Assembly (NCBI GenBank): GCA_040384765.1
Contig: JAZKIQ010000005.1
Location: 358-64,357 of the forward strand
Direction: 5' to 3'
Length of the DNA stretch: 64,000 bases
Source: Patescibacteria group bacterium
GTDB taxonomy: Bacteria; Patescibacteriota; Minisyncoccia; Phycocordibacterales; JBBUBG01
Below are positions 6,697 to 31,082 of the stretch, piece after piece. The first letter of the stretch is position 1, and each line of letters starts with the position of its first letter. Under the pieces are notes generated by a model. That model did no database searches, was not told the DNA's origin, and worked only from the letters and a program-made list of their open reading frames with translations. A program made the position numbers and the translations under genes.

Positions 6697-6724
6697 TTGA
6701 CTTTTACGGTAAAAATGCTATAAT
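6697..6724 (+). promoter_or_regulatory. near-consensus sigma70 promoter with extended -10 (TTGACT-N16-TGcTATAAT) (P1)
   Basis: ttgacttttacggtaaaaatgctataat directly upstream of SD ggaaggagg and ATG 6749. Confidence 0.6.
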
Positions 6725-6748
6725 TTTAGATGGAAGGAGGCCTGAAAA

Positions 6749-7198
6749 ATGGTCTTAAAAATGCCTCGAAAGAAAAGGGTGCTTTTGCTCGCAGACCCGG
6801 GACCGATGATCTGCTTGATCGACAGCCTGCTCACCATGGCACTTGGAATGGAAGTGCGGTACGTTACACTCGCAGACTGCCTCGAGGTGGAAGATGCGGA
6901 CACGGACTGCCTCGCTACGTCTCTTGAAAATCAGGGGCTGGAGATGTCGTGGATGCACCCTGATTGTCTGGTTGGACTCTACGATCTCGCGTTCATGGGG
7001 CGGAAGGAGCAGGCGTACGGTCGCGCATACAATCTGACTCGACAGCTCTTCCGAAACGTTCCGTTCCTCGTCTGCTTACCTGACTTCGAAGTAAGCATTC
7101 TGCCGCCGGACGTTCCCGACTCGCTCAACGTGGAGGATGTTACCTTGGTGGAAGCGAGACATCTCGTCGAGAAAATCAAGGAAGTAGTCCCCAAGTGA
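6749..7198 (+). CDS. hypothetical protein, GC-rich ORFan cassette (weak receiver-domain-like N-terminus?)
   Basis: 149 aa; strong SD ggaaggagg-8nt-ATG, own promoter and terminator; noticeably higher GC than flanking dcw/lysS genes; opposite strand to neighbours. Confidence 0.6.
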   Translation: MVLKMPRKKRVLLLADPGPMICLIDSLLTMALGMEVRYVTLADCLEVEDADTDCLATSLENQGLEMSWMHPDCLVGLYDLAFMGRKEQAYGRAYNLTRQLFRNVPFLVCLPDFEVSILPPDVPDSLNVEDVTLVEARHLVEKIKEVVPK

Positions 7199-7201
7199 AC
7201 A

Positions 7202-7242
7202 GGCCCCGAGGCGCGAAAGCGCTTCGGGGCTTCATATTTTTA
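7202..7242 (+). terminator. rho-independent terminator of the 6749-7198 cassette
   Basis: ggccccgaggcgc-gaaa-gcgcttcggggc followed by ttcatattttt. Confidence 0.6.
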
Positions 7243-7255
7243 ATGCTTGAAATTT

Positions 7256-8728
7256 CTAGCTCTTCGGACGCAATAACGGAAACAACTGTGTCTCGTGGGC
7301 GGACTTATCTTCGAGAAATGCAAAGAGGCGCTCGGAAACGCCAAAGCCAAACGCTGGCGGCATGCCGTGCTCCATCGCTTTTATATACTCCTCATCAAGT
7401 CGCTGCGCCTCATCATCTCCTGCTTCGCGCATCTTTTCTTGATCAAGAAATCGCTCGCGTTGATCAAGCGGATTGTTGAGCTCGCTGAACCCTTTGCCAA
7501 TCTCTGAGCCTGCAAGGATCACCTGGAAGCGCTCCACCTCATCTGGCTTGCCAGGAACACGTTTGGCGAGCGGCTCGAGAAATACAGGCACACCCACGAG
7601 AAACGCTGGTCCTGCGATCCCCTTTCTTATCGATTTCCAGAGATGGTCAATGGCTCGCGCTTTATTAGGCTCCTTCCCCAGATCGACCTTTGCTTTTTTT
7701 GCTGCCGCGATCGCCTCTTCTTCGGTGCAGGCTACTGGGTCAATACCAAAATGCTCTTTTATAGTCTCGCCGAAATGAAGCGTCTTCCACTCCGCCTCGA
7801 GATCTACTTCATGGCCGCGAATTGAAAACTGCATCTTGCCGTACACTTTTTTTGCAACATGCTGGTAGAGATCTCGAATCATCGACATCCCCTTTGTGTA
7901 GTCTGAATACGCTTCATAAAACTCGCACTGGGTATAGTCCTGGAGGTGCTCATTCGAGATACCTTCGTTGCGAAAAATACGCCCGATCTCAAACACTTTT
8001 GGAAAACCCGCTACAAGAAGGCGCTTCTGCCAAAGCTCTCCAGCCGAAATACGCAAATAAGCCTCAATATCAAGGGCATTGTGGTGGGTAACAAAAGGGC
8101 GAGCATCCGCGCCACCGGGCGTTGTCTCAATAGCTGGTGTTTCTACCTCAAGGTATCCCTTTTCGGTAAGAAACTCACGAATCGCATTCCAGAACCGCGC
8201 TTTGCGCATAAACATCTCGCGAATCTCTGGATTGAGCACCATATCGAGATGGCGCGCGCGGAGCCTAAGCTCCTTATCCTCAAGGCCGTACCAAGAGTCT
8301 GGGAGCGGGAGGAGCGACTTTGCAAGCATGCGCCACGACTCTACTTGTACACTTTTTGCTCCGCGCTTGGTGACAAGAAGTACGCCGGTAAACTCTACAA
8401 AATCTCCTGTGTCAGCAGTGGCGAGAAAAAGATCGAACAGGGCCGGGTCCATCTCGTCCTTTTTGAAATACATCTGGAGTCGCGCAATGCCTACAGGCGT
8501 CGAGCCGTCATCGAGATCCGCAAAAGCGAGCGCACCATGCTCGCGCAGAGCCATCACGCGGCCTGCAACAGTGACCTTTTTTTTATCAGCGGAAAGTGAC
8601 TCGAAATCACGAAGCGCGTCGGCAATCGAATGCGTGCGATGCGATTCGGCAGGAAAAGGGTCGATACCGCGCTCCTTGAGAAGCTCCAGCTTTTTAAGAC
8701 GTTCGTTGCGAATATCTTCGAGGGACAT
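7256..8728 (-). CDS. lysS: lysyl-tRNA synthetase (class II)
   Basis: 490 aa, OB-fold anticodon-binding N-terminus plus class II aaRS core, typical LysS length and motifs. Confidence 0.85.
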   Translation of the reverse strand: MSLEDIRNERLKKLELLKERGIDPFPAESHRTHSIADALRDFESLSADKKKVTVAGRVMALREHGALAFADLDDGSTPVGIARLQMYFKKDEMDPALFDLFLATADTGDFVEFTGVLLVTKRGAKSVQVESWRMLAKSLLPLPDSWYGLEDKELRLRARHLDMVLNPEIREMFMRKARFWNAIREFLTEKGYLEVETPAIETTPGGADARPFVTHHNALDIEAYLRISAGELWQKRLLVAGFPKVFEIGRIFRNEGISNEHLQDYTQCEFYEAYSDYTKGMSMIRDLYQHVAKKVYGKMQFSIRGHEVDLEAEWKTLHFGETIKEHFGIDPVACTEEEAIAAAKKAKVDLGKEPNKARAIDHLWKSIRKGIAGPAFLVGVPVFLEPLAKRVPGKPDEVERFQVILAGSEIGKGFSELNNPLDQRERFLDQEKMREAGDDEAQRLDEEYIKAMEHGMPPAFGFGVSERLFAFLEDKSAHETQLFPLLRPKS

Positions 8729-8764
8729 TGAGAAAGGGACTAGGGATCAGGGACAAGGGACTAG

Positions 8765-9232
8765 TTAAACTATCTCCAAAACTGAATATTTTACTTTGCC
8801 GCGAGGAGTTGCCACAGTTACACTGTCGCCCTTCTTCTTATTGAGGAGTGACCGGCCAAGAGGTGATTCATTCGAAAGCTTCTGCTGTGCAATGTCAGCC
8901 TCTTCGGATCCAACGATCAAAAAATCCTGTGTCTCTTTCTCGCCCTCTTTCTGAATAGTTACGCGAGAGCCAATGCTTACCATGCCAACTTTATGCTCCT
9001 TGGTTATTTCAGCATGCTTGAGAATAAGCTCAAGCTTTGAGATACGATCTTCGAGGGCTGCCTGGTTTTCGCGAGCCTCCTGATACTCGGCATTTTCAGA
9101 AAGGTCCCCCAGTGATTTCGCATACTCAAGCTGCTCCGCAATCTCCTTGCGCTTGGTACCTTTTAATACAGCAAGCTCCTTCGTAAGCTCTTCGTACTTC
9201 TCCTGGGAAAGGTAATGTTTCTCTTCGTTCAT
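8765..9232 (-). CDS. greA: transcription elongation factor GreA
   Basis: MNEEKHYLSQEKYEELTKEL...coiled-coil N-domain plus FKBP-like C-domain; ORF track N-terminal extension to 9280 unlikely. Confidence 0.8.
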   Translation of the reverse strand: MNEEKHYLSQEKYEELTKELAVLKGTKRKEIAEQLEYAKSLGDLSENAEYQEARENQAALEDRISKLELILKHAEITKEHKVGMVSIGSRVTIQKEGEKETQDFLIVGSEEADIAQQKLSNESPLGRSLLNKKKGDSVTVATPRGKVKYSVLEIV

Positions 9233-9375
9233 GTCGTTTATTGTTGCGACAATAGTACCATACCAGGACCCTAAACTCAATCGCAGAGAAAAGGTTAGAA
9301 ATACCTTTTACATGGACAGCTGATTGTATTTAGGATAGAAACAATCAAGACAAAAGAACGAAAGGAGTGCGTTGA

Positions 9376-9846
9376 ATGAGAGCGCTTGCAAAAGAAAACC
9401 TGCAGATCAACCTCCTCAACTATAGGAATGCTCGCCGAAAGGAGTTCGAACAGGAACTACTGAGGTTCTTTGAAGGTCCGATGTGGAATGCCTCAATCGG
9501 CCTTCTCGAAGCAACGGAGAGCTACATCGAGATTGCCACCACAGAGCACGGGAAGTGCATTCTCAGTGATCTCGGATTCTTCGTCATTCCGCTCAGTAAG
9601 ATGGAGCATGCTCGTAAGGTCACCATCTCTCAGGTCGCAGCCAACCTTGCACCCCTCGACACGAATCGCGACTGGAATCGACCCTCTCGATTCATCACCC
9701 AGATGCGTTTCAAGCTCGACGAGCTTGCTGGGACTCTGGCCCGAGCCCTGGATTCGAGCGACAAAACGGCGCAGGGGAAGAAAAGCAAAGCAAGGAAGGC
9801 CCCTCGAAACACGAACAAGCACCAACAAGTCACAAAGAAGAGGTAG
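9376..9846 (+). CDS. hypothetical protein (GC-rich ORFan, basic C-terminal tail)
   Basis: 156 aa; SD aaaggag-8nt-ATG; followed by strong terminator; no recognisable domain. Confidence 0.5.
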   Translation: MRALAKENLQINLLNYRNARRKEFEQELLRFFEGPMWNASIGLLEATESYIEIATTEHGKCILSDLGFFVIPLSKMEHARKVTISQVAANLAPLDTNRDWNRPSRFITQMRFKLDELAGTLARALDSSDKTAQGKKSKARKAPRNTNKHQQVTKKR

Positions 9847-9856
9847 CTCCCAATCC

Positions 9857-9891
9857 CCGCCGCGACGGCAACGTCGCGGCGGATCTATTTT
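9857..9891 (+). terminator. rho-independent terminator
   Basis: ccgccgcgacg-gcaa-cgtcgcggcgg then atctatttt. Confidence 0.65.
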
Positions 9892-9918
9892 AGAAACTCC
9901 CACTACCTCGCGTGAACT

Positions 9919-10012
9919 AAAATCCTCGTCTACGAGGCGGCCGGCGAGCATCGAGGCTAGTTGTACTACTAGCCAAGTGGCGGAGCCGCCAACGACGTAG
10001 ACGAGGATTTTA
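9919..10012. repeat. family-D element copy 2 (16-bp perfect terminal IR aaaatcctcgtctacg/cgtagacgaggatttt)
   Basis: shares gagcatcgaggc and gcggagccgccaac core with other copies. Confidence 0.55.
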
Positions 10013-10021
10013 GGAGCGCCA

Positions 10022-15122: not shown

Positions 15123-15190
15123 GTGGTTGTTTGAATGAATGCTACAGGAGAAAAACTGCTTGGTCAAAAAATGCCCGACTCCGATATCTA

Positions 15191-15282
15191 CCTAGAAAAG
15201 CACGATAAAATTCTGTTGAATTTTTCTCTACTCCTCGCCTTCGCTCGTCCGTAAGGCTTTTCCAGGCAAATATCCTCGTCGG
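15191..15282. repeat. family-C repeat copy 2 in proS-rseP gap
   Basis: gaaaagcacgataaaattctgttgaatttttctctactcctcgccttcgctcgtccgtaaggcttttccagg. Confidence 0.55.
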
Positions 15283-16449: not shown

Positions 16450-16510
16450 CAAGAGTTCAGACATCAGAGTTTAGAGTTCAGTCTGACTGAGCTCTGATCT
16501 CTGAACTCTG
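16450..16510. repeat. family-B palindromic 9-mer cluster copy 1 (rseP start / frr stop gap)
   Basis: caagagttcagacatcagagtttagagttcagtctgactgagctctgatctctgaactctg. Confidence 0.6.
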
Positions 16511-16525
16511 TAATCTGTACTCTTC

Positions 16526-17077: not shown

Positions 17078-17093
17078 AGAAAATCATAGTTAC

Positions 17094-17153
17094 CAGAGAT
17101 CAGAGTTTAGAGTTCAGCCAGACTGAGCTCTGATAACTAAACTCTGAACTCTT
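17094..17153. repeat. family-B cluster copy 2 (frr-holB gap)
   Basis: cagagatcagagtttagagttcagccagactgagctctgataactaaactctgaactcttg. Confidence 0.6.
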
Positions 17154-17888: not shown

Positions 17889-17979
17889 TCCGAAAGTATA
17901 TACGAACGGACGTTTTTTAAAAAAGAAAAAGCCGGGCATCCGAAAGGATACCCGGCAACACCCCCCCAAGACAGCACCT

Positions 17980-18294
17980 CTACGCGGACGCCAGTCCAAA
18001 AATATATCGGCCAGCGAGAGGAGGATGCGGATGCTTCTGCCAATCAACCACCCGGAGACCATTCTGCTCGGCAAACTCCGAGATCAAGGCGAGCGCTTCG
18101 GCCTCGTTCGTAACCGGGCTCCAAGCAGGCATCTTGTCCTCCTTCTTCCCGCTTGCTAAGAGCCAATACAGCTTTTCAGCTATCCTCACGAAGGCGATCA
18201 ACGTGGGAAGGCCAGGTTCAATGATGATGTACCCACGATCGCCGGGCTGGAGCACTGTCTTCTTGTCAGCAAGCACAAACTGATTAACGGACAC
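17980..18294 (-). CDS. hypothetical protein (GC-rich ORFan cassette, GTG start)
   Basis: 104 aa; SD aaaaggag-6nt-GTG; own consensus promoter P2 upstream. Confidence 0.5.
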   Translation of the reverse strand: MSVNQFVLADKKTVLQPGDRGYIIIEPGLPTLIAFVRIAEKLYWLLASGKKEDKMPAWSPVTNEAEALALISEFAEQNGLRVVDWQKHPHPPLAGRYIFGLASA

Positions 18295-18340: not shown

Positions 18341-18386
18341 GTGATACAAAAAAACTATATCACTTTTTTATGAAAAGTCAACTTAA
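18341..18386 (-). promoter_or_regulatory. near-consensus promoter P2 (TTGACT-N16-TGaTATAGT) with 6-bp palindrome gtgata/tatcac at the transcription start
   Basis: minus strand reads ttgacttttcataaaaaagtgatatagtttttttgtatcac; highly similar to P1/P3/P4/P5. Confidence 0.55.
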
Positions 18387-18419: not shown

Positions 18420-18524
18420 AAAAATCTTCGAGATGCGAGGAGGTCGGCGAGCATCGAGGCGTAGCTGTACATGGGGTACTGCTAGCCGAGTAGCGGAGCC
18501 GCCGACAAAGCAGATTGAGATTTT
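18420..18524. repeat. family-D element copy 3, between promoter P2 and mreB2 stop
   Basis: aaaaatcttcgagatgcgaggaggtcggcgagcatcgaggcgtagctgtacatggggtactgctagccgagtagcggagccgccgacaaagcagattgagatttt. Confidence 0.55.
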
Positions 18525-19615: not shown

Positions 19616-19722
19616 AAATCCCAAGCACCAAATTCCAGATATATTTCAATATTCAAAATACAAATAACCCAAGTTTAGTATTTGAGTTTTGAGTATTTTC
19701 TGGAATTTGGTGCTTGGGATTT
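19616..19722. repeat. family-F element copy 2 with perfect 24-bp terminal inverted repeats aaatcccaagcaccaaattccaga, in divergent mreB2/priA promoter region
   Basis: perfect 24-bp TIRs; loop aaataacccaagtttagtatttgagttttgag homologous to copy 1 loop. Confidence 0.65.
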
Positions 19723-19770
19723 GAAGAAGGAAGCGCTTCTAGATGCGCCACGTCTATGCCATTATAGCCC

Positions 19771-21709
19771 CATGGAAGAAGCTACCCCGGAGGTCGAACC
19801 CGCTCCGCAAATGTTCCTTATCTCGGTCATCCCTCTCTCGCGCGAGCCGCTCAGCGAAAGCCTTTCGTATTTCAGCAAAAAAAAGCTACCTGCCGGATCG
19901 CTCGTAGAGGTACCGGTACGCAACAGACACCTCTTTGCCCTCGTCTCCTCGTGTGAGTCCGTACTCGATCTTAAATCTGCAATAAAAAACGCACCGTTTC
20001 CGATCAAAAAAATAGACACACTCAAGGAGGGACTTTTTTTTGACGCGCCGTTTCTCGAGGCAATCCGCAAGGCATCGCACTTTTTTGCCGTCTCTCCGGG
20101 CGCACTCCTGCGCACCCATATCCCTGAGGCGATCCTTGAAAACTGGGATGGTCTGGAAGCAAAGGAGATGCCGCCGCGGGGCCTCCCTGCCATATCCGAA
20201 CAGTATCTCTTGCAGGCGCCTATTACCGAACGTGAAGGGATCTATCGCGCGAAAATCCGAGAGGAGTTTGCAAAGAAGCATTCAATCCTCCTCTTGGTGC
20301 CCAGCAAGAGCGCCATCGATGATAGCGCGCTCCGGCTCTCTCGAGGGATCGAAGAGTACACGATCAAGCTCCATGGAGATCTCCCCGCCAAAGAGCTCCT
20401 TGCCAGCTGGAACAAAGCACTTTCCGAGGAGCACCCCGTGCTCGTAATCGCGACCGCACCGTACCTCGCGCTCCCGCGCCACGATATTGGCACCTACATA
20501 ATCGAGCATGAAGCAGGAGCGGGCTACCGCTCTATTGTGCGGCCCTACTACGACTCGCGAACGATCGCCGCATACCTCGCGGCCGCGCGCGGTGCCTCGA
20601 TCATCTTTGCCGACACACTTCTCTCGTTTGAAACACTCCACAAGAAGGAGCTCGGCGAAGCGCAGGCACTCGCTCCACTCAAACATCGGCTTGTCTCAAG
20701 CGGTGAGACAGCGGTGATCGACCTCAAAAAAAACAAAGAGAAAAAGGGTGACTATTTTCTTTCCGCAGAACTCCTCTCGACAATAAAAGAGACCCTTGCC
20801 CGTGAACAAAACCTCTTTTTATTTACAACACGAAAAGGGATCGCCCCGCTGACGGTGTGCAACGACTGCAGCACCACTCTCGGCTGCAGCGTGTGTGGAA
20901 GGCCACTGGTACTCTATGCACGAGAGGCAAAAAAAGAGGGCGAATCAAAGAATGTGTTTGTCTGCCATTCATGCTCAAAAGAGTACCCGACAGATACTCG
21001 CTGCGCTGTATGCGGAAGCTGGCGCTTGGCCCCGCTTGGCGTAGGAGTAGAGCGAGTGAAGGAGGCGATACGCGAGGCATTTCCTGAAGCACATATCTTC
21101 TCGGTAGACCGCGACAGCACCAAAACACACAAGCAGGCGCTTGAGGTGGCAGGGCGCTTTCAAAAATCATCCGGGGCGATCTTGATAGGCACAGAGATGG
21201 CGCTGCCGTACCTCACAGAGATTAGTGTGAGCGCTGTGGTGTCGGCAGACAACCTTTTTGCAATCCCAGATTTTCGGATCAACGAGAGGCTGATGCACAT
21301 ACTAGTCGAGATGCGCGAAAAAACTCGTGGTGCGTTTATCATACAGACCCGAAAGCCTGATCTGCGTATCTTTACTCACGCAAAGCGCGGCACTATTTTT
21401 GACTTTTATCGCGAGGAGATGGAGAACCGCAAGAAATATGACTACCCACCCTACTCTGTTTTTGTAAAAATAACGCGCACCGGAAAAAGCATGGAGGTTC
21501 ATGCAGAGATGGATACTCTTGAGATCGATCTTGCGGAGTGGAAACCCGAGGTGTTCTCAGGTTTTGCGCCGCCCCATGGTGGAGAGGAGACCATGCATGC
21601 ACTTGTGCGCCTCGAACCCTCGCTCTGGCCACACGATAGGCTGATCGCACTTTTGCGAAAGCTGCCGCCAAAGTTTTATATAGAGGTAGACCCCGAGGAG
21701 CTGTTTTAA
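19771..21709 (+). CDS. priA: primosomal protein N-prime (PriA)-like with degenerate helicase motifs; start uncertain (19682 TTG to ~19808)
   Basis: Cys4 zinc-ribbon insert CNDCSTTLGCSVCG...CHSCS...CAVCG typical of PriA; C-terminal domain conserved; no GxxxxGK[ST] Walker A, DEEH replaced by IEHE. Confidence 0.6.
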
Positions 21710-21717
21710 AAAGAAAC

Positions 21718-21754
21718 CCCGACAACCGTCACCGGTTGTCGGGGCGCTCTCAGG
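21718..21754 (-). terminator. rho-independent terminator (minus strand)
   Basis: ccccgacaaccg-tcac-cggttgtcgggg followed on minus strand by tttcttttt. Confidence 0.65.
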
Positions 21755-21787: not shown

Positions 21788-22171
21788 CTAGGCAGCCCGA
21801 AGCGCGCGGAGGCGGACGTACATATCGTACTCCTGCTTCTTCACGCCCCGCCGAGGCACGACCAAGAGGTCCCACTCGCGAGAGAACTGCTGTTCTCCCA
21901 CTTTGAGCTCCGCGGCCGCGAAGGAGAGGGCCATCCCCTTCAACACCTCTTCAGGGAGAGGCTCACCATCTTCGACTTCGAGGTAGTTCGCGCTGATCCT
22001 CTCGAAGAAGGAGGCAATTTCCGGAGTGAGCTCCGGAACGATGCTCACGCTTTCCATCATCTCGTCGTGCAGGCATGGCCTCTTGTCTGCCCTGCTCGCC
22101 CGACGAGCGAGCAAGATGACGAGCATTACGAACGCACAGACGACCTGGGGCCACGAATCGATAAAGAACAA
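21788..22171 (-). CDS. hypothetical small membrane-anchored protein (GC-rich cassette); boundaries uncertain
   Basis: GC-rich region with overlapping ORFs on both strands; minus-strand terminator downstream; consensus-type promoter TTGACT-N16-TACAGT at 22219-22246 and SD gaggagg suggest TTG start ~22171 rather than ORF-track 22279. Confidence 0.35.
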   Translation of the reverse strand: MFFIDSWPQVVCAFVMLVILLARRASRADKRPCLHDEMMESVSIVPELTPEIASFFERISANYLEVEDGEPLPEEVLKGMALSFAAAELKVGEQQFSREWDLLVVPRRGVKKQEYDMYVRLRALRAA

Positions 22172-22287: not shown

Positions 22288-23625
22288 ATGGCTGAGATAC
22301 GTGAAATCGTACAGGAAGGGACGCCTGTTCTTCGTGAAGTTACGAAAGAGGTTCCCCTTGAATCAATACGATCTCCAAAAATTCAAAAACTGATCGCCGA
22401 GATGAAGGCGACCGCTTCCAGGTGCGTAGATGGCGTAGCCCTCGCTGCACCACAGATCGGAGAGCCACTCCGCATTTTTGTTGTATCACCTCGTGCCTAT
22501 GCAGAAGGCGAGGATCTTTCGGAAGAGAATCTCGTCTATATCAACCCCAAAATAGTAAAGCTCTCCAAGAAAAGAGAAGAGCTCGACGAAGGATGCCTCT
22601 CTGTGCGCAATGTGTATGGCAAGATCGAGCGCTCAGAACGTGCCACGATCGTCGCATATAATGAGCACGGCGTGTCATTCGAGCGAGGTGCAGGCGGACT
22701 CCTCGCAGAGATATTTCAACACGAGATGGATCATCTCGAAGGAAAGCTTTTTATCGACTTTGCACGCGATCTGCGCATGGTGCCTCCTAAAGAGGTGCCT
22801 CGATTCGTTTTTTTTGGCACACCAGAGTTTGCGGTGCAGGTAGCAGAGGAGCTTGAGAAAAAGGAGCTGCTCCCCATACTAGTGGTTGCTGCACCTGACA
22901 AGCCGGTCGGCAGGAAGGGCGTTATCACTCCCCCACCCATGAAGGTGTGGGCAGAGAAGCGGCACATACCGTGCATCCAACCAGCAACGCTCAAAGGGAA
23001 AGAGGCGCTCGATACTCTTGTCGGGGAACAGCCCATACTGTTTGTCGTTGCCGCCTACGGCAAGATCATCCCTCAATCTATTCTTGATATCCCTTCACGC
23101 GGCACCCTAAACGTGCACCCTTCGCTTCTTCCCCGCCATCGCGGAGCAGCACCTATTCAGACAGCGATTCTTGAGGGAGACAAAGAGACAGGGGTGTGCG
23201 TAATGGTGCTTGATGCAGAGATGGATCATGGGCCAATCCTAGGATGCGAGCGACTAACGCTCGGAGAGTGGAAGCCCTCATACCCAGAGCTCGAAGAGAA
23301 GCTTGCACTTATGGGAGGTAAGCTTCTCGCGCGCCTTATCCCAAAATGGGTCAAGGCAACTATTGAGCCGAAGGAGCAAGATCATGTGAAGGCAACATTT
23401 ACAAAAAAACTTGAGACCGAAGATGCATTTGTTGAGCCAGGCGAAATAGAGAGCGAGCTTGCCGATCGCAAGATTCGCGCACTGCATCCGAGCCCAGGCG
23501 CATATACGATATTAAAAACAAAGACAGGCAAAGAGGTGCGACTCAAACTGCTACCTGGAGGCAAAGTGATTCCGGAGGGGAAAAAAGAGATGCTGTTTAG
23601 AGAGTGGAAGAGGGGCAATCTCTGA
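22288..23625 (+). CDS. def-fmt: fused peptide deformylase / methionyl-tRNA formyltransferase (Def-Fmt fusion)
   Basis: N-terminus has Def motifs GVALAAPQIG, EGCLSV, QHEMDHLEG; C-terminus has Fmt motifs FFGTPEFAV, HPSLLPRHRGAAPIQ; single uninterrupted 445-aa ORF. Confidence 0.8.
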   Translation: MAEIREIVQEGTPVLREVTKEVPLESIRSPKIQKLIAEMKATASRCVDGVALAAPQIGEPLRIFVVSPRAYAEGEDLSEENLVYINPKIVKLSKKREELDEGCLSVRNVYGKIERSERATIVAYNEHGVSFERGAGGLLAEIFQHEMDHLEGKLFIDFARDLRMVPPKEVPRFVFFGTPEFAVQVAEELEKKELLPILVVAAPDKPVGRKGVITPPPMKVWAEKRHIPCIQPATLKGKEALDTLVGEQPILFVVAAYGKIIPQSILDIPSRGTLNVHPSLLPRHRGAAPIQTAILEGDKETGVCVMVLDAEMDHGPILGCERLTLGEWKPSYPELEEKLALMGGKLLARLIPKWVKATIEPKEQDHVKATFTKKLETEDAFVEPGEIESELADRKIRALHPSPGAYTILKTKTGKEVRLKLLPGGKVIPEGKKEMLFREWKRGNL

Positions 23626-23740
23626 CCAACGTCAGAGATTGCCGGTTGGTAATCCAACCGAGACCGAAGCTGCACCCGAACGATAGTGAGGAATAAGTGC
23701 AGGTGAGAAAATCTGACACAAGAGATCAGAGCTCAGTTAG

Positions 23741-23785
23741 AAAAAAATTCAAGCCCCGGTTCGCTTGCGCGAACCGGGGCTTTCC
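23741..23785 (-). terminator. GC hairpin terminator (gccccggttcgc-ttgc-gcgaaccggggc), copy 1 of a duplicated hairpin
   Basis: on minus strand followed by ttgaattttttt; near-identical copy at 24102-24131. Confidence 0.6.
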
Positions 23786-23791: not shown

Positions 23792-24082
23792 CTAGGCCCG
23801 ATCGGCGTCCTCCATCTCCTGCTCATGGCTACGGAGACGCTCCGCCTTCTCCTCTTCGGCGGCCTGCTTCTGCGCGAGGATAGCGCCCACGACATCAGAC
23901 ATGTCCGAGGAGCGCAGCCTGCTGCAACAGTCTCGGTAGGCCGCCATGATCTCGTCGTGATTCTCAGGAATCTTGGTAGCGCGCAGGAGTCGCTCGAGCA
24001 TCTCGAGCTGACCCTTCGTCTGCACCATCTTGATGATCGCCACCACCGAGAGATGGAATGGCTTGAGATCTTTGGGATCCAC
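23792..24082 (-). CDS. hypothetical protein (GC-rich, GTG start with SD aaggag)
   Basis: 96 aa, acidic C-terminus; flanked by two near-identical GC hairpins. Confidence 0.5.
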   Translation of the reverse strand: MDPKDLKPFHLSVVAIIKMVQTKGQLEMLERLLRATKIPENHDEIMAAYRDCCSRLRSSDMSDVVGAILAQKQAAEEEKAERLRSHEQEMEDADRA

Positions 24083-24101
24083 GATTTTTCTCCTTGGTTT
24101 T

Positions 24102-24131
24102 CGCCCAGGTTCGCTTGCGCGAACCTGGGCG
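24102..24131. repeat. second copy of the ttcgcttgcgcgaac GC hairpin (cgcccaggttcgc-ttgc-gcgaacctgggcg)
   Basis: shares 15-nt core with hairpin at 23753-23780. Confidence 0.55.
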
Positions 24132-24146
24132 GTTGCGAACTAGTGC

Positions 24147-24530
24147 TTAGCTCAAGTGGACTTCGTAGCGATGGTGCTCGAGGCGCACGACGGAAGCGAG
24201 CAACGACTCGCAGTGAGTAGTCGCCCGTTCGACCCAGGTGAGGGTCAGGACCTCGACGCGAGACTGGCCGTCAACGAGCCTGTCTACGAGAGTTGCGAGG
24301 TCGAGAGGATGAATGCTCGAGAGCTTAAGTATCAGATCCTTAGAGCGGGTCAATATCAGGACCGTCAACGCGGCAGACCTTTCGGTGATGTCACCATTCG
24401 GCCCCCTTTCGATGTGCCTGATCTCCTTCCAGTACACCTTCGGATCAGACTCCTTGTCGTTCACGGCAAACTCTCCTGCCACCTTCAGATTCTCCAGTTT
24501 CTTCACAGGACATTCCCCTTTCGTTGCCAA
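24147..24530 (-). CDS. hypothetical protein (GC-rich; TTG start at 24530 or GTG at ~24506)
   Basis: 127 aa; upstream consensus promoter P3; forms two-gene islet with 23792-24082. Confidence 0.45.
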   Translation of the reverse strand: MATKGECPVKKLENLKVAGEFAVNDKESDPKVYWKEIRHIERGPNGDITERSAALTVLILTRSKDLILKLSSIHPLDLATLVDRLVDGQSRVEVLTLTWVERATTHCESLLASVVRLEHHRYEVHLS

Positions 24531-24567: not shown

Positions 24568-24596
24568 TGAAAGTTGCCGGTAGCTATCTAATATAA
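24568..24596 (-). promoter_or_regulatory. consensus promoter P3 (TTGACA-N17-TGcTATTAT); -35 overlaps the upstream terminator stem
   Basis: minus strand ttgacattcttcataaatagtgctattat. Confidence 0.55.
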
Positions 24597-24615
24597 TAGC
24601 ACTATTTATGAAGAA

Positions 24616-24650
24616 TGTCAAAAGCCGCCTCTGGGCGGCTTTTGACATTT
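24616..24650. terminator. bidirectional terminator (14-bp perfect stem tgtcaaaagccgcc/ggcggcttttgaca)
   Basis: perfect palindrome downstream of cyclophilin gene. Confidence 0.6.
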
Positions 24651-24668
24651 AATGAGTTGGAAATAGAG

Positions 24669-25376
24669 CTACTTCACTACTACGCTCGTGAGCAGAATAT
24701 CCGTAAGCGGTTTGTCTCCTTCTCCATGATTTACCGGAGCTGACTCGATCTTATCAACAATATCCATACCAGAAACGACACTGCCAAAAGCGGTATGCTT
24801 GCCGTCGAGCCATGGGGTTGCCGGGGCAGTGATAACAAAAAACTGCGAACCGTTTGTGTTTGGCCCCGCATTTGCCATTGCGAGCACACCACGCACAAGC
24901 GCCTCATCGCTCGTCTCGTCTGCAAACTGGTAGCCTGGGCCGCCAGTGCCCCAAGAGGCCCGCTTGCTTGAATCCTTTGAAAACGGATCTCCGCCCTGGA
25001 TCATGAACCCCTTGATCACTCGGTGAAAGCGGGTGCCATCGTAAAAATGCTCATGTGCAAGCTTGAGAAAATTTTCAACTGTCTTTGGAGCCTTATCGCG
25101 AAAGAGCTCGAGCTCGATAATGCCAAGCGAAGTGGTAAAGACAACATGAGGGCGAGCATTTGGGGTTTCCATAGGTTTTGGTGGGGTTTTTATAGCTGGA
25201 GAAGTAATAGCAGGAGCGGTATGAACTCCTGAGACAGCCGCGTCTCGAACAAATGAGTCTTGCTCTGTCGCGACTGACCGCGAAAAGAACACGAGGCCAC
25301 CTGCAGTAAAGGCTGAAAATACAATAAAAGTGATCCAGTAGGCGATATCTTTCATTAAAATAGAATACCGCATCAA
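24669..25376 (-). CDS. ppiB: membrane-anchored cyclophilin-type peptidyl-prolyl cis-trans isomerase
   Basis: N-terminal TM; FHRVIKGFMIQGGDP cyclophilin signature. Confidence 0.8.
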   Translation of the reverse strand: MMRYSILMKDIAYWITFIVFSAFTAGGLVFFSRSVATEQDSFVRDAAVSGVHTAPAITSPAIKTPPKPMETPNARPHVVFTTSLGIIELELFRDKAPKTVENFLKLAHEHFYDGTRFHRVIKGFMIQGGDPFSKDSSKRASWGTGGPGYQFADETSDEALVRGVLAMANAGPNTNGSQFFVITAPATPWLDGKHTAFGSVVSGMDIVDKIESAPVNHGEGDKPLTDILLTSVVVK

Positions 25377-25388
25377 GAGATAAGAGGC

Positions 25389-25479
25389 CAGAGTTCAGAG
25401 CTCAGTCAGAACGAAAGCGGCGCCTCGAAGAGGCGCCGCAGCCTGAACTCTGTTTACTGAACTCTAATCTCTAAACTCT
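25389..25479. repeat. family-B cluster copy 3 with embedded GC hairpin gcggcgcctc-gaa-gaggcgccgc (hpf-ppiB gap; last unit overlaps hpf stop codon)
   Basis: cagagttcagagctcagtcaga...gcctgaactctgtttactgaactctaatctctaaactct. Confidence 0.6.
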
Positions 25480-27094: not shown

Positions 27095-27150
27095 AACAAG
27101 AAACCGCCGAAGCGGTCTCTTGTTGTAGCAGCGACTTAAGCATTAGCTAT

Positions 27151-27254
27151 AAACCTTTCATATGCGAGACGCAGGTGAGCATCGAGCAATGCTGTACTTA
27201 AAGGTACTGCTTTGCGAGCAAGCGGAACCTGCAACGAAGCAGATGAAGGTTTTA
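27151..27254. repeat. family-D element copy 4 (diverged TIRs aaacctttc/gaaggtttta)
   Basis: gcaggtgagcatcgagcaatgctgtacttaaaggtactgctttgcgagcaagcggaacctgcaacgaagcagatgaagg. Confidence 0.45.
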
Positions 27255-27477
27255 GCAATGCGCGGCTACTATCTAGATCGGTCTCTGGCCCTGTATCAGG
27301 CGTACCAGCACCATCACGATCGCAACAACAAGGAGCAGATGGATGAACCCTCCAAGTGTATACGAGGTGACCAGGCCAAGGAGCCACAAAACAATCAACA
27401 ATACAGCAATGGTTTCAAGCATGGTAATGAGAGAGCTTCGCCCAAAAGAACCCTCTTAGGCTAAGCGCTCCAAATAT

Positions 27478-27861
27478 CTAGCGTACGTGTACCTCGCGGC
27501 GAATATCTTCACGCGTTGCCCCGCCGGTGCCCATTCCCCACCCCACGATAATGAGAGCCACCGCGATCACAACGACCACAAGAATTACCCACGTGTTCGC
27601 AGAAAGGCCGCCGAAGGAGTCAGCATTTGTCGTGTCTGCAGGTGCCCCTGTCGTAATCTCGACAGACGTCGAAGGAAGGACCGTGCCTGTTCCCCCGGAA
27701 GGATCTGCTGGGGCTGTTACCCCAGTGCTATCACCCGTGCCACTCGTGCTCTGTGCATGAGAAAATGCCGGCACGAAAAGCGACATGGTAAAGCCAAACA
27801 GGAGCACCAGCGCAGCAAGCAGCGTAAGCGAACGTTCTCCGGAATGCGTATAGTTTGTCAT
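27478..27861 (-). CDS. secreted/membrane-anchored low-complexity (S/T/G-rich) protein
   Basis: signal peptide, ST-rich linker, C-terminal TM anchor. Confidence 0.45.
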   Translation of the reverse strand: MTNYTHSGERSLTLLAALVLLFGFTMSLFVPAFSHAQSTSGTGDSTGVTAPADPSGGTGTVLPSTSVEITTGAPADTTNADSFGGLSANTWVILVVVVIAVALIIVGWGMGTGGATREDIRREVHVR

Positions 27862-27979
27862 AATACGTTAGCGCACATCGGTGCGCATTTTCATTTCGAC
27901 CTTTCATCTCACTTCACCCACGTAGACGCGAGCATACAACCAGCTCTTACACAGCCAGGATACGAAAAGAAACGGTACG

Positions 27980-28741
27980 TTAGCGCGTGAGGAAACGAGT
28001 AAATAGAGTATTCTCGGCAAGCTGTGGCTTAAGCGTGTTCCACGGAATAGTGACCTTCTGAGCTCCGGCTGCGTAGGGCGCAACCTGATATGGATCAAAA
28101 AGAATAGTAAGGCCCTCTGCAGAAATAAGATAGCTCTTGAAATGCTCCTCCTTAGGCGCAGTGCCCATCAAAATGGTTTCGCGAAACTCCTCCCCAAGCT
28201 GTCGAAGCAGATCTCCCTTCGTGAACTGTGATAGCACCCCAAGATAGGCTGAGGTCGGGCGGAAAATAGCCTTGAGCGGAATCACCTCTGCAGTTCCCAG
28301 GTCGTAGAGCAGTGTTGTAGTGAAGGAGAAGGGATGAGCAGCACCAGCAGAGTATGCAGAATGCATAAACTCGATCGAAAGGAGGTGCTCATCTTTGTAG
28401 CGAACCTGATACGAGGTCTCAAGCTCACTTTCGAGGCCCACGAGCGCTGGGGGTCGAGGTGCTTCTGCGTCCTGCCTGAATGAAAGTGCAAGCTGATTAA
28501 TGTCACCCTGAATCTCACGATTTATCTTTTCATCGAGGGCAGGGGTAGCAAGCCCCGAGATAACGGGATACTCGATGTTAATAGCAAACCTTTTATCCGA
28601 GTCTTCTGCATGTATCTCTTTTTTCTCAATAGCAAAAGGCGCCTTTGGGGCAAGTATGCCTCCGCGAGTCGCAAAGAACCACCCACCCGCGAGAAGTGCG
28701 ACAATCAAAAGTAGCCAACCAAAAAGGGATTTTTTAGACAT
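27980..28741 (-). CDS. DUF3298/DUF4163 (RsiV/PdaC-like) membrane-anchored protein
   Basis: N-terminal TM; C-terminal ILFDPYQVAPYAAGAQKVTIPW matches the DUF3298 signature. Confidence 0.5.
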   Translation of the reverse strand: MSKKSLFGWLLLIVALLAGGWFFATRGGILAPKAPFAIEKKEIHAEDSDKRFAINIEYPVISGLATPALDEKINREIQGDINQLALSFRQDAEAPRPPALVGLESELETSYQVRYKDEHLLSIEFMHSAYSAGAAHPFSFTTTLLYDLGTAEVIPLKAIFRPTSAYLGVLSQFTKGDLLRQLGEEFRETILMGTAPKEEHFKSYLISAEGLTILFDPYQVAPYAAGAQKVTIPWNTLKPQLAENTLFTRFLTR

Positions 28742-28749
28742 TGGGTTGA

Positions 28750-29820
28750 TTAGCAGAGTAGCATGGCGTCGCCAAATGAGAAGAATCTATACTTTTCATC
28801 CACCGCAACCTCGTATAGCTCACGAACAGATCTTTTTGCATTTTTATCTTTGAGAAAGGCGTCGACAAGAAGCATGAGGGATGATTTGGGAAGATGAAAG
28901 TTGGTTATCAGATGATCCGCCACCACAAAACGATACGGATCTCGGATAAATATATCCGTGCTCCCCGGCCCAGCGCGAAGCAGTGCTCCCCCGCTCGCGG
29001 CCACCGCAGCGCTTTCAAGGGTACGGGTTGTGGTAGTGCCTACCGCGACGATAGCCACGCCCTCGCGTTTTGCTGCTTCGATCTTCTCTTTTGCTTGCAT
29101 GGGGATGGTGTACTCCTCCCGGAAAAGTGTCCGGGTATCATACTGCTCTTTGGTGAATGGAGAAAATGTTCCCAAGCCGACATGCAAAAAGAGTGTCGCA
29201 ACATCAACACCTTTACCTGCAAGCGAGGAGAGAAGTTCGGGAGTGAAATGGAGAGATGCAGTTGGAGCTGCTACCGATCCAGCTTCATTCGCAAACACTG
29301 TCTGATATCGAATGCGTAGCTCCTCTTCGGAGAGGCCCGAGCTGCCAAGATATTTAGGAAGAGGAGTAACCCCCTCACCCTCCAGTAGCGAAAACAGCTC
29401 TTCGCGAGAAAAATCAAAGCCAAACGTAAATATTTTTTCGTCTTGGCGGAGCACCAGGATGGCAGCGCCGTTTGTAAAGAAAAGCTTCTGGCCCGGGTTC
29501 ACCCTCCGGTCAACCAGGGCACGGATCTCCCCCGGCACTAGAGCGCCTTCATTAAGGAGGAAGAGCACCTCTACCCCTCCGCCAGTTTCTTTGCGAAGCA
29601 GTACGCGCGCTGGCACCACTTTAGTACGGTTCATTACGAGGAGACTCTTTTTGGGAAGAAAAAGAGCGAGGCGATCAAAGGTAGTATGAGTGACCTCGTC
29701 GGTTGCCGTGTTGTACACAAAAAGCCGCGAACTGTCCCTTTGGGCGAGGGGCGTTCGAGCGATAAGCTCGTCCGGAAGAGTGTAGGCAAACTGTTCGAGA
29801 AGCGGTTCCATAGATTCCAA
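28750..29820 (-). CDS. queA: S-adenosylmethionine:tRNA ribosyltransferase-isomerase QueA
   Basis: FAYTLPDELIARTPLAQRDSSRL N-terminus and full length. Confidence 0.8.
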   Translation of the reverse strand: MESMEPLLEQFAYTLPDELIARTPLAQRDSSRLFVYNTATDEVTHTTFDRLALFLPKKSLLVMNRTKVVPARVLLRKETGGGVEVLFLLNEGALVPGEIRALVDRRVNPGQKLFFTNGAAILVLRQDEKIFTFGFDFSREELFSLLEGEGVTPLPKYLGSSGLSEEELRIRYQTVFANEAGSVAAPTASLHFTPELLSSLAGKGVDVATLFLHVGLGTFSPFTKEQYDTRTLFREEYTIPMQAKEKIEAAKREGVAIVAVGTTTTRTLESAAVAASGGALLRAGPGSTDIFIRDPYRFVVADHLITNFHLPKSSLMLLVDAFLKDKNAKRSVRELYEVAVDEKYRFFSFGDAMLLC

Positions 29821-29877
29821 AATGTAACCACGAAAACGGGCTTCTGCCCAGAGAGCCGAGCATGATATGCTTTCCCC

Positions 29878-30351
29878 ATGTCATTCCCAAAAATCGACTC
29901 GAAAGCCCCCTCCTTTTCTCTCACCGATCAAGCAGGTGCTCCGCACACCCTAGCCGACTATGCTGGAAAATGGGTTCTCATCTATTTTTACCCCAAGGAC
30001 AACACTCCGGGCTGCACTGTTGAGGCGCTCGCTTTCGAGAGCAAGCTCCCCGATTTTACAAAGTACAACTGCGTGATACTCGGTGTATCGATAGATTCAG
30101 AGGCAGCCCACAAAAAGTTTTGTGAAAAGCAGAACCTTACCTTTACCCTCCTCTCCGACGTAGACAAAAAAATGGTCCACGCATATGGCGTATGGGACAA
30201 GAAAAAGTTTATGGGCCGCGAATATATGGGCATTCTGCGCACCTCTTTCTTGGTCAATCCTCTCGGCATCATTGCAAAGGTGTACGAAAACGTAAAACCG
30301 CCCGTGCATGCGAATGAGGTGCTGAACGATCTCTCAGCTCTTTCAAAATAA
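29878..30351 (+). CDS. bcp: peroxiredoxin Bcp (thiol peroxidase)
   Basis: YFYPKDNTPGCT active site. Confidence 0.85.
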   Translation: MSFPKIDSKAPSFSLTDQAGAPHTLADYAGKWVLIYFYPKDNTPGCTVEALAFESKLPDFTKYNCVILGVSIDSEAAHKKFCEKQNLTFTLLSDVDKKMVHAYGVWDKKKFMGREYMGILRTSFLVNPLGIIAKVYENVKPPVHANEVLNDLSALSK

Positions 30352-30368
30352 GTACGCCGGAAAAAGAA

Positions 30369-30414
30369 AACCCGCCTGCACTGCACGGATTTTCCGTGCA
30401 GTGCAGGCGGGTTG
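30369..30414. terminator. bidirectional terminator, 20-bp perfect stem
   Basis: aacccgcctgcactgcacgg-attttc-ccgtgcagtgcaggcgggtt; T-run on minus strand. Confidence 0.65.
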
Positions 30415-30418
30415 TTAG

Positions 30419-31012
30419 CTACCACGCCGCCATAAGCGTGCGCGCGATTGCGCCCATGTCGCTCCGGCCGCCGCAGTTGGAGGTCAGGATCGGATAGGTC
30501 ACGACCTTATCCGCAACGAGTGCCGCGAGTTGGCGTTCCTTTTCGCGGTGGTCGCAGTCGCACGCGAGCACTGCGACTTCGCACTTGGGGAGCTTTTCGC
30601 GGTACTCCCGGACGCAATCGATTGCGCTCTCGAATGCCGAGAGGCCTGCGTACGCGACCACCAGCACATTTTCGCCACCTGTTGCGAGAGGCAGATCCTT
30701 CTGAACCTCAGCACACACTTCGCGCTGATAGCCAGCGGCATCTGCACGCATAGAGTCGATGGTAGCGTCGGCCAGCTTGTGATCACCGACCGAGTGAGCA
30801 TGCGCGAGCAGAATTGCCCCGCCGAGGCTCGGAAACGCACCTCCGGCGTGCACCTTAACCGTGAGCCCTTCCGGCGTCCCCGGCACGATGCCATCTTCGA
30901 AGCCGCCCACCGTGTTGTACGTGACGAAGAGTGCTTCGAGAACCGGCTTGTGGGCAACCGCAATCTGCGGCAACACGACATTCACGAACTCTGCGAGCTT
31001 AATCCAGTTCAT
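30419..31012 (-). CDS. hypothetical protein, GC-rich cassette (~62% GC)
   Basis: 197 aa; SD gggaggg-7nt-ATG; own promoter P4 and terminator; no confident family. Confidence 0.55.
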   Translation of the reverse strand: MNWIKLAEFVNVVLPQIAVAHKPVLEALFVTYNTVGGFEDGIVPGTPEGLTVKVHAGGAFPSLGGAILLAHAHSVGDHKLADATIDSMRADAAGYQREVCAEVQKDLPLATGGENVLVVAYAGLSAFESAIDCVREYREKLPKCEVAVLACDCDHREKERQLAALVADKVVTYPILTSNCGGRSDMGAIARTLMAAW

Positions 31013-31053
31013 GGAAACACCCTCCCGGGCTAGAGCACTCTTATGTTATATGG

Positions 31054-31082
31054 AGAACCGTACTTTTTTATTATAACACATA
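31054..31082 (-). promoter_or_regulatory. consensus promoter P4 (TTGCTT-N17-TGtTATAAT)
   Basis: minus strand ttgcttttaacataaatatgtgttataat. Confidence 0.5.

Follow-up and report, generated by a model that had tools for sequence, protein, structure and literature searches.

We analysed a stretch of 64,000 nucleotides from a Patescibacteria group bacterium (contig JAZKIQ010000005.1, positions 358 to 64,357; hereafter the window), in which ten short open reading frames (ORFs) are interspersed among ordinary housekeeping genes. We call these ORFs cassettes and number them C1 to C9, C3 being a two-gene unit of C3a and C3b. We regard it as fairly probable that the window is part of a small Paceibacteria genome with two expression architectures, in which the cassettes are a leadered, Shine-Dalgarno (SD)-led, self-contained and accessory minority. 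The split into two expression classes, with the leadered class enriched for lineage-specific genes, appears robust. An earlier reading of the same DNA from its letters alone, the first-pass annotation, had flagged most of these ORFs, which are hypothetical proteins in the NCBI annotation (window locus tags V4674_02490 to _02815).

Cassettes and Core Genes Differ in Composition and Expression Signals

GC content at third codon positions (GC3) averaged 0.714 (0.64–0.81) in the ten cassettes versus 0.538 (0.45–0.64) in the 43 Pfam-annotated genes of the window that served as the core comparison set (Mann-Whitney p = 6e-7). First and second codon positions (GC1 and GC2) were equal in the two sets, and 14 other hypothetical genes had a core-like GC3 of 0.529. 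Codon choice followed suit for some amino acids: TTC encoded 78% of Phe in cassettes versus 26% in core genes (p = 5e-14) and AAG encoded 85% of Lys versus 50% (p = 9e-12), with no shift for Asn and Glu. The cassettes had been described as GC-richer than housekeeping genes, and this holds for both GC3 and codon usage.

The signals for translation initiation separate the same two sets. The median energy of the duplex predicted between the region upstream of the start and the anti-SD was -10.0 kcal/mol for cassettes, -1.9 kcal/mol for core genes and -2.6 kcal/mol for random positions, and energies of -7 kcal/mol or lower were found for 8/10 cassettes versus 3/43 core genes (p = 6e-6). This agrees with the canonical SDs attributed earlier to the cassettes and with their absence from the core. 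The cassettes carry the GGAGG-like motif 5–10 nt from the start that marks SD-led initiation, and this motif recurs in the counterparts on L038, L039 and L040, which are short contigs of a ~94%-identical population (metagenome assembly GCA_040384005.1). Alternative start codons were also predicted correctly, with GTG in C2, C3a, C3b and C6 and TTG in C5. C3a most likely starts not at the TTG at 24530, the start assigned earlier, but at the GTG at 24506, which is preceded by the SD gaaagggg.

Most units end in a hairpin terminator of their own, as had been proposed. Nine sites in 1–60 kb qualified as the strongest terminators (≥10 pairs and ≥7 G-C pairs): seven trail cassettes, one follows hypX and one follows hpf. 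A hairpin with a T-run likewise closes C6 and C9. A typical unit thus consists of a promoter, a 5' untranslated region (UTR) of 12–80 nt, an AAGGAGG-like SD 5–9 nt from an ATG, GTG or TTG, an ORF of 96–314 aa and a terminator. The promoter has a -35 of TTGAC(T/A), or of TTGCTT and TTGATA in two cases, a spacer of 16–17 nt that is T-rich and then A-rich, and a -10 of TGnTAnnnT.

The five related promoters P1 to P5 of the first-pass annotation are each present as exact, single-copy strings in the window, P4 extending 16 nt beyond the end given there (31082). A strict regular expression, TTGAC[AT]-N12-15-TGnTAnnnT, has only six matches in 64 kb. Five are upstream of cassettes, including C9 (61744–62037, minus strand), which had been missed, and the sixth precedes a conserved non-coding stretch. 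In a generic promoter scan the total number of sites was not above that in shuffled sequences, and sites with at least 10/12 hexamer matches plus the TG were cassette promoters only. The promoters of C1, C2, C3 and C5 have at least 9/12 hexamer matches plus TG, as expected of sigma-70 extended -10 promoters; those of C4, C8 and C9 were identified by reading the sequence directly, and C6 and C7 are preceded by weaker promoter-like sites that have no TG. The TTGAC(T/A) consensus therefore stands for most units but not for P4, whose -35 is TTGCTT. Our motif scan of the window found no consensus promoter upstream of ordinary genes. Composition and promoter distribution were the two points on which the first-pass annotation had said that its claim could fail, and on both the cassettes set themselves apart.

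Pairwise local alignment of the upstream regions showed similarity confined to the ~30-nt promoter (z 3.6–4.7). As the similarity stops there, the units have a near-consensus promoter type in common rather than a copied module. A promoter/UTR module of common ancestry was rejected on these alignments, and the shared segment postulated earlier reduces to the promoter itself. The idea of independently expressed units can be kept in part: each has its own promoter, 5'UTR with SD and terminator (one unit being bicistronic), all recognised as sequence motifs, but the units do not constitute one family or module. Their features are as follows, from one end of the window to the other.

6697–6724 (+): P1, promoter of C1, TTGACT-16-TGcTATAAT
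6749–7198 (+): C1 ORF, 149 aa, SD ggaaggagg, GC3 0.67
7202–7241 (+): C1 intrinsic terminator, hairpin
9307–9336 (+): C7 promoter-like site, weaker, TTTACA-18-TAGGAT
9376–9846 (+): C7 ORF, 156 aa, SD gaaaggag, GC3 0.65, between PBP2 and greA
9857–9891 (+): C7 intrinsic terminator
17919–17956 (-): C2 intrinsic terminator
17980–18294 (-): C2 ORF, 104 aa, GTG start, SD aaaaggagag, GC3 0.65
18354–18381 (-): P2, promoter of C2, TTGACT-16-TGaTATAGT
21708–21744 (-): C5 intrinsic terminator
21788–22171 (-): C5 ORF, 127 aa, TTG start, SD agaggagg, GC3 0.78, N-terminal hydrophobic helix
22222–22249 (-): P5, promoter of C5, TTGACT-16-TGtTACAGT
23741–23779 (-): C3b intrinsic terminator
23792–24082 (-): C3b ORF, 96 aa, GTG start, SD caaggag, GC3 0.78
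24104–24129 (-): hairpin after C3a, without T-run, near-duplicate of the C3b terminator stem
24147–24506 (-): C3a ORF, 119 aa, GTG at 24506, SD gaaagggg, GC3 0.73
24593–24621 (-): P3, promoter of C3a-C3b, TTGACA-17-TGcTATTAT
24614–24650 (-): palindrome AAATGTCAAAAGCCGC...GCGGCTTTTGACATT, the ppi terminator, whose T-run overlaps the -35 of P3
30361–30411 (-): C4 intrinsic terminator, 20-bp stem, 100% conserved in L038
30419–31012 (-): C4 ORF, 197 aa, SD gggaggg, GC3 0.72
31070–31098 (-): P4, promoter of C4, TTGCTT-17-TGtTATAAT
43414–43445 (-): C8 intrinsic terminator
43469–44413 (-): C8 ORF, 314 aa, SD ggaggtg, GC3 0.70
44432–44460 (-): C8 promoter, TTGATA-17-TGtTCTAAT
54891–54934 (-): bidirectional terminator hairpin, common to C6 and the carbonic-anhydrase-like gene
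54955–55572 (-): C6 ORF, 205 aa, GTG start, SD gaaggaggg, GC3 0.81
55657–55684 (-): C6 promoter-like site, TTGACG-16-TACCAT
61699–61740 (-): C9 intrinsic terminator, conserved in L040
61744–62037 (-): C9 ORF, 97 aa, SD gaaaggagg, GC3 0.64
62062–62090 (-): C9 promoter, TTGACT-17-TGtTACTGT

Core Genes of the Leaderless Type

The first-pass annotation had noted that core genes lack an SD, but not a feature that goes with it. At core starts, inspection revealed extended -10 boxes at a fixed distance of six bases upstream of the ATG, for example TGATATGCT-ttcccc-ATG in bcp, TGTTAGTAT-gtcgat-ATG in fur and TGATATGCT-aggtac-ATG in a DUF2914 gene. The pattern TGnTAnnnT-N6-ATG occurs eight times in the window versus 1.08 expected, and 0/100 shuffles reached eight. 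In the window, the histogram of -10-to-ATG distances rises sharply at 6 nt (8, background ~1); in 29 related loci of the candidate phyla radiation (CPR) it peaks at 6 nt (45) and 7 nt (26) over a background of ~9, and Clostridia control loci showed no such peak. These core promoters have GC-rich spacers and no recognisable -35. A -10 that ends 5–8 nt before the ATG, with neither 5'UTR nor SD, is what leaderless transcription would look like at the sequence level, and the operon-first housekeeping genes of this lineage are most likely leaderless. This would largely explain why core genes have no SD. Internal operon genes of the core likewise lack one, and SDs are nearly absent from core genes in the 29 related loci too. 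The leaderless-type promoters identified in the window are:

4350–4367 (-): ftsI
29863–29880 (+): bcp, TGaTATGCT-6 nt-ATG
38732–38749 (-): fur
43383–43400 (-): further leaderless-type promoter
46286–46303 (-): DUF2914
63130–63147 (+): further leaderless-type promoter

Taken together, these signals suggest how the two classes might work. Housekeeping operons would be transcribed from an extended -10 without a -35, 6 nt before the ATG, to give leaderless mRNA, and their internal genes would be translated without an SD. The strong promoter of a cassette would permit autonomous transcription at any site, including antisense between core operons, while its SD would recruit 30S subunits to the leadered message and its terminator would insulate the neighbouring genes. 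Such a context-independent layout would suit a gene that has to function after insertion or exchange; a unit that works wherever it is inserted would explain the link with flexible-genome content. The cassettes are accordingly predicted to be expressed both highly and autonomously. The organism also presumably has a functional anti-SD, as judged from the conservation of well-spaced SDs between populations and among the homologues of C8.

The Cassette Architecture in Other Paceibacteria

The window has ~51% GC, and its LysS relatives indicate a CPR lineage within Paceibacteria: the nearest GTDB representatives have 58–65% LysS identity and are Kaiser-, Nomura- or Adlerbacteria or Paceibacterota metagenome-assembled genomes (MAGs). 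In a promoter-first survey of other Paceibacteria loci, all of the ORFs with both promoter and SD (8/8) had a GC3 above the locus median. These were three ORFs in L012 (0.53–0.60 vs 0.42), one in L023, an Adlerbacteria MAG (0.76 vs 0.48), three in L043 (0.40–0.56 vs 0.36) and one in L044, a further relative locus (0.48 vs 0.46). By these signals, the cassette architecture recurs in other Paceibacteria. The L023 case is a 387-aa ORFan (2994–4264, minus strand) whose tail is rich in lysine and alanine and resembles histone H1. It is an antisense insertion that separates rseP from a gene for an aminoacyl-tRNA synthetase (aaRS), and it has the full cassette architecture, terminator included.

Cassette Proteins

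The ten cassette proteins had no match in Pfam, NCBIfam, PHROG or PADLOC. An all-versus-all BLASTP found no similarity among them, so the notion of a cassette protein family was rejected. Only C5 and C8 have hydrophobic segments. A large-database search was made for C4 and C8: among 5.8 billion proteins, C4 matched only its own 95%-identity cluster, and a word-indexed search with C8 likewise returned only its own cluster. Phage and plasmid collections gave no tblastn match to the nine cassettes searched (C8 left out), and a phage or plasmid origin, for which PHROG offered no match either, is unsupported. Single-sequence AlphaFold models were poor (predicted local distance difference test, pLDDT, 40 for C4 and 57 for C1). 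In Foldseek the C1 model had no PDB match below E = 0.008, with template modelling (TM) scores <0.45, and a phmmer search of PDB sequences with C4, C6 and C8 gave no match. C3a and C3b have the layout of a type II toxin-antitoxin or immunity pair, with no match in the four libraries named above.

Two cassettes do have relatives. A full HMMER scan with C8 recovered 55 remote homologues that have acyltransferase motifs, the best at E = 3e-23 and 29% identity; some of them are from Vogelbacteria and other CPR, and one is named 1-acyl-sn-glycerol-3-phosphate acyltransferase. PlsC/AGPAT enzymes are marked by NHxxxxD-type and FP(E/D)GxR-type motifs and a PF01553 match. C8 itself has no Pfam match; its relatives carry PF01553 or bear the acyltransferase name, and H99, D179 and R181 are invariant. 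C8 is a putative divergent PlsC/AGPAT-like membrane acyltransferase. In L044/L045 its homologue lies inside a conserved operon, between PBP2-FemAB and greA (L044 10001–10885), whereas in the window it is a stand-alone unit; a strong SD is kept in each of the three lineages compared. C6 and the convergent Pro_CA_2 gene at 54296–54853 are remote paralogues (E = 0.005), with the C-x-D-R and H-x-x-C-G motifs aligned. With C8 acyltransferase-like and C6 a paralogue of its neighbour, it would be too strong to call all cassettes foreign ORFans. The claim survives in that most have no detectable homologues; it fails in that two have native relatives and no donor was found.

Variation between Relatives and Populations

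According to the Pfam map, the cassettes (in brackets) are interspersed among ordinary housekeeping genes in the order murE/F, ftsI, mraW, mraZ, [C1], lysS, greA, [C7], PBP2, mreC, mreB, aaRS, rseP, frr, holB, [C2], second mreB, priA, [C5], def-fmt fusion, [C3b, C3a], ppi, hpf, MFS (major facilitator superfamily), queA, bcp, [C4], hypX, lexA, dinB, fur, ABC transporter, [C8], atp operon, carbonic-anhydrase-like gene, [C6] and, further on, [C9]. C1 is antisense to the flanking lysS and mraZ operons, and C7, too, lies antisense between operons of the core. In L023, L035 (a Paceibacterota MAG of 61% GC) and L044, the genes holB-frr-rseP-aaRS-mreB-mreC-PBP2-greA-lysS-mraZ-mraW-ftsI-murE form a collinear block, and C1, C2 and C7 are absent from it in all three. 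The cassettes thus combine atypical composition, in GC3, with absence from relatives, in C1, C2 and C7, as genomic islands do; no donor was found, and there is no tRNA and no integrase or transposase among the Pfam-scanned ORFs.

Closer comparison was possible with the ~94%-identical population. C4 and C9 are under purifying selection: the ratio of non-synonymous to synonymous substitution rates (dN/dS) was 0.07 for C4 against L038 (0.04 for its neighbour bcp) and 0.11 for C9 against L040. The -35, -10, SD and terminator of C4 are conserved in L038, with two 7-nt indels in the UTR, and the same control signals of C9 are conserved in L040, where the sequence downstream of the terminator is unrelated between the two populations. 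That the -35 and -10 are kept while the flanks diverge supports a promoter function indirectly.

The C3 pair evolves in opposite ways (23792–24506 vs L039 1308–2077). C3a is variable, with ~34% identity over the alignable C-terminal 73 residues and indels between conserved ends, whereas C3b is nearly identical, with four differences (~1 synonymous, 3 non-synonymous) and a dS of 0.016 versus 0.72–0.85 in ppi and fmt. This is suggestive of an arms-race or allele-replacement pair. Between ppi and C3a, L039 has an extra cassette of 254 aa (402–1166) that is absent from the window. It has a TTGACA...TGCTAAAAT promoter, an SD, a GC3 of 0.71 and a C-terminal RNA polymerase alpha C-terminal domain (PF03118, E = 3.7e-8), and it is flanked by two copies of the ~37-nt terminator/promoter palindrome AAATGTCAAAAGCCGC...GCGGCTTTTGACATT. 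Strain-level variability is seen in C3a, C3b and the extra L039 cassette. These differences suggest that cassettes are exchanged by recombination, and, together with lineage-specific proteins, they make the units look like flexible genome.

Origin of the Cassettes

Several observations count against a leadered accessory minority as we describe it. The carbonic-anhydrase-like gene, the CopC-domain gene and hypX are SD-led with an ordinary GC3; for hypX the architecture is cassette-like and GC3 is only 0.57. High GC3 goes with the full package rather than with the SD alone.

31622–32181 (-): hypX unit, with promoter TTGCTC-17-TATAGT (32153–32181), SD aaggagg, ORF 31665–32117 and terminator 31622–31660

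An ORF-first survey of the 29 related loci found no link between SD and GC3 (p = 0.33), probably because its SD-like calls, at 7% versus 5% in the internal control, were mostly noise. The ORFan status of the eight cassettes other than C4 and C8 was judged from four libraries of hidden Markov models (HMMs) and from clusters of 1–3 members at 90% identity, and the strain comparison covers three short contigs of one other assembly. At least one unit is an old resident, as C8 belongs to a CPR-wide acyltransferase family whose L044 member sits with its SD in a core operon, and C6 is kin to a native neighbour. Finally, only 48% of Parcubacteria 16S sequences have a recognisable anti-SD motif, about half reportedly having no CCUCCU (Tsurumaki et al. 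2022, RNA 28:1041, PMC9297842). The near absence of SDs from the core fits this reported loss, and the window resembles the anti-SD-lacking subgroup in belonging to the same broad lineage and in having an SD-poor core. It differs in its conserved canonical SDs, which argue for a working anti-SD. The rRNA, including the 16S 3' end, is absent from the window and from all fetched relative loci.

The cassettes could instead be native, very highly expressed genes shaped by translational selection with no horizontal component, their ORFan look reflecting the fast evolution of small proteins. We think this unlikely. In its favour, GC1 and GC2 match the core, the codon shifts are specific (toward C-ending Phe, Tyr, Ile, His and Asp), and GC3 lies above that of the host in 10/10 cassettes here and 8/8 elsewhere, whatever the genome GC. 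The dS of C4 (0.35) and C9 (0.39) is about half of the 0.58–0.85 of core neighbours, and C8 homologues keep their SD at ~29% identity. However, core genes expected to be abundantly expressed (the atp operon, frr, hpf, mreB and greA) do not show the cassette codon trend, and the core genes with the highest GC3 are mraZ, priA and an aaRS. Related genomes have no C1, C2 or C7 at the syntenic sites, and the near-identity of C3b beside neighbours with 15–20% synonymous-site divergence points to exchange and not to constraint alone.

Codon selection is one of three candidate causes of the high GC3, next to GC-biased gene conversion and an origin in GC-richer relatives. GC-biased gene conversion is favoured by the one-directional GC3 excess, the near-identity of C3b and the dS of cassettes (0.016, 0.35 and 0.39), which is always below that of core neighbours. 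A further-reaching proposal is a lineage-wide cassette pool, whose members would be acquired, lost or swapped between strains by recombination at terminator/promoter palindromes, for which SD-led translation would be largely reserved and which would be the main route to new proteins. We consider this speculative and rather unlikely.

Horizontal acquisition from GC-richer, SD-using organisms, most plausibly GC-rich Paceibacteria whose codons and signals were retained, would account for the lineage-specific insertions and for the different content of the two populations. Cassette codons indeed fit L035 better than their own core (-1.099 vs -1.124 log-likelihood per codon, ~36 nats in total), including the unshifted Glu and Asn. 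This margin is small, however, and no donor homologue was found for C4 among 5.8 billion proteins or for nine cassettes among phages and plasmids. The shift is always toward higher GC3, even at loci with 36–48% GC3, and cassette GC3 scales with that of the host; recipient lineages use the same promoter style, and C8 and C6 have native relatives. We therefore hold acquisition from such donors to be improbable.

A dedicated mobile-cassette system, resembling integrons or miniature inverted-repeat transposable elements (MITEs) and using the hairpins as site-specific recombination sites, is very improbable. The two ~37-nt palindromes that bound the extra L039 cassette, the near-identical hairpins of C3a and C3b and a 49-nt repeat adjoining C7 and C2 would fit such a system. 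Against it, the hairpins that end the ten units show no further sequence relationship, an attC-type core is lacking, every unit has a promoter of its own, and no integrase or recombinase domain was found among the larger ORFs scanned with Pfam. The duplicated palindrome is equally explained by homologous deletion or insertion. The 49-nt repeat (family D13) has two copies of 78% identity at 9963–10011 and 18476–18524, right after the stops of PBP2 and the second mreB.

That the cassettes are chance frames in GC-rich non-coding DNA might be suggested by their short length and lack of family-library matches, but it is effectively refuted by dN/dS values of 0.07–0.11, a GC1>GC2<GC3 coding pattern, the NCBI annotation of most of them as proteins, the 55 homologues of C8 and promoter and SD statistics far beyond chance.

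Relation to Known Systems

Lomsadze and colleagues are said to have grouped mixed leaderless/SD-led genomes, from Actinobacteria and Deinococcus-Thermus, as 'group C' of GeneMarkS-2 in 2018. In such genomes many operon-first genes have a near -10 and no SD, and leadered genes have a canonical SD. The window resembles them in having a -10 just before the start of first genes and SDs on leadered ones. Unlike in these phyla, internal operon genes are also SD-less here, and the SD-led class comprises ~15% of window genes, which are mostly lineage-specific and GC3-enriched and have a full promoter and a strong terminator. SD-poor Bacteroidota, such as Flavobacteriia, have leadered, A-rich mRNAs, and a few of their genes (e.g., rpsU) keep a strong SD. 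The genome-wide SD depletion with few SD-bearing exceptions is similar; however, the exceptions there are conserved ribosomal or regulatory genes, whereas here they are mostly accessory genes with no known relatives, and the bulk of the genes appears leaderless.

Like genomic islets and ORFan accessory genes, the cassettes have an atypical third-position composition and no known homologues, are absent in relatives and differ between populations. Unlike islets, they are single-gene units scattered at operon junctions with no tRNA, integrase or transposase nearby; they have a uniform expression architecture, and their GC3 deviates in one direction in several genomes. Integron cassettes, too, consist of short ORFs unrelated to one another, have an imperfect palindrome behind every ORF and vary in content between strains. 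They were rejected as a model: the hairpins here are unrelated, the units have their own promoters and form no array, and neither an attC core nor intI is present, with no integrase domain found among the Pfam-scanned ORFs. Both themes, the dual leaderless/SD architecture and accessory genes of atypical composition, are thus known, and in the literature that we searched we found no description of leaderless initiation, of a dual architecture or of this combination for CPR.

CPR make up a large share of bacterial diversity, and their gene-expression signals are almost undescribed, while gene finders and expression predictions presuppose SD-led starts. A simple sequence rule appears to split a leaderless housekeeping genome from autonomous, SD-led, GC3-rich units, and several other Paceibacteria MAGs follow it as well. 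Most lineage-specific genes seen here fall into the SD-led set, and several of them vary between populations. If confirmed genome-wide, the rule would be of practical use for recognising accessory genes in uncultured CPR, possibly with host-interaction genes among them. Start-codon annotation would benefit too, and the rule would allow a test of whether Parcubacteria reported to have no anti-SD still use SD pairing.

Other Elements in the Window

The window contains no tRNA, and no Rfam family matched it at the gathering threshold. Directly upstream of P4, 31125–31311 (minus strand) consists of a promoter-like site (31284–31311), a ~150-nt non-coding stretch with a folding z-score of -3.8 and a strong terminator (31127–31154; not a cassette terminator) that has compensatory stem changes in L038. 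Positions 31165–31277 are 100% identical to the related population, where neighbouring genes differ by ~6%. The stretch scored 28.9 bits against Rfam AdoCbl-II, below the gathering score of 36.5 and with one helix missing. It is a candidate small RNA or riboswitch-like leader, to be taken as a lead only. On the plus strand, 31413–31607 contains a small ORF (MWQQWANMLMGLWVIVSGYLGF...) that looks unannotated and encodes 64 aa with two hydrophobic helices; it accounts for the apparent ORF at 31247–31693 (minus strand), which has a non-coding-like GC1<GC2 pattern.

Core genes are accompanied by several palindromic elements. A stem-loop with perfect arms of 12–14 bp (TCCCGTTAGAAAT ... ATTTCTAACGGGA) occurs in three copies on the minus strand, at 43280–43379, 52489–52567 and 58581–58678. 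The arms were found six times versus 0.17 expected, a count that no shuffle reached; they enclose a variable loop of 55–75 nt, and the minimum free energy is -34 to -44 kcal/mol. Each copy abuts a gene without SD (hyp42788, atpH and DUF2585), the last base of its 3' arm falling precisely at the ATG. As the 5' arm of the first copy begins at an ATG 6 nt past an extended -10, this copy may encode a leaderless mini-ORF that stops just ahead of the real start.

Members of a second palindromic family, made up of the heptamers AGAGTTC/CAGAGTT with their complement (…AGAGTTCAGAGTTCAG…CTGAACTCTGAACTCT…), occupy spacers within or behind core operons, at 16452–16517, 17088–17153, 23707–23747, 25376–25479, 46310–46409 and 53089–53154. 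Long inverted ends (GATGTTTCCTCTGAAAAGC...GCTTTTCAGAGGAAACATC) also mark a 99-nt element, which has two copies of 75% identity, upstream of ftsI (4381–4479) and of a class II aaRS gene (15180–15278). Another element, with 18-nt inverted ends (CAAGCACCAAATTCCAGA...TCTGGAATTTGGTGCTTG) and copies of 73–76% identity, lies in the murE/F-ftsI gap (2524–2625) and in the gap between the second mreB and priA (19621–19723).

Among the core genes themselves, 22288–23625 (plus strand) encodes a fused peptide deformylase and methionyl-tRNA formyltransferase of 445 aa (Pep_deformylase and Formyl_trans_N). In a metagenome scan with this Def-Fmt fusion, no relative exceeded 55% identity, and the gene separates C5 from C3b in the window.

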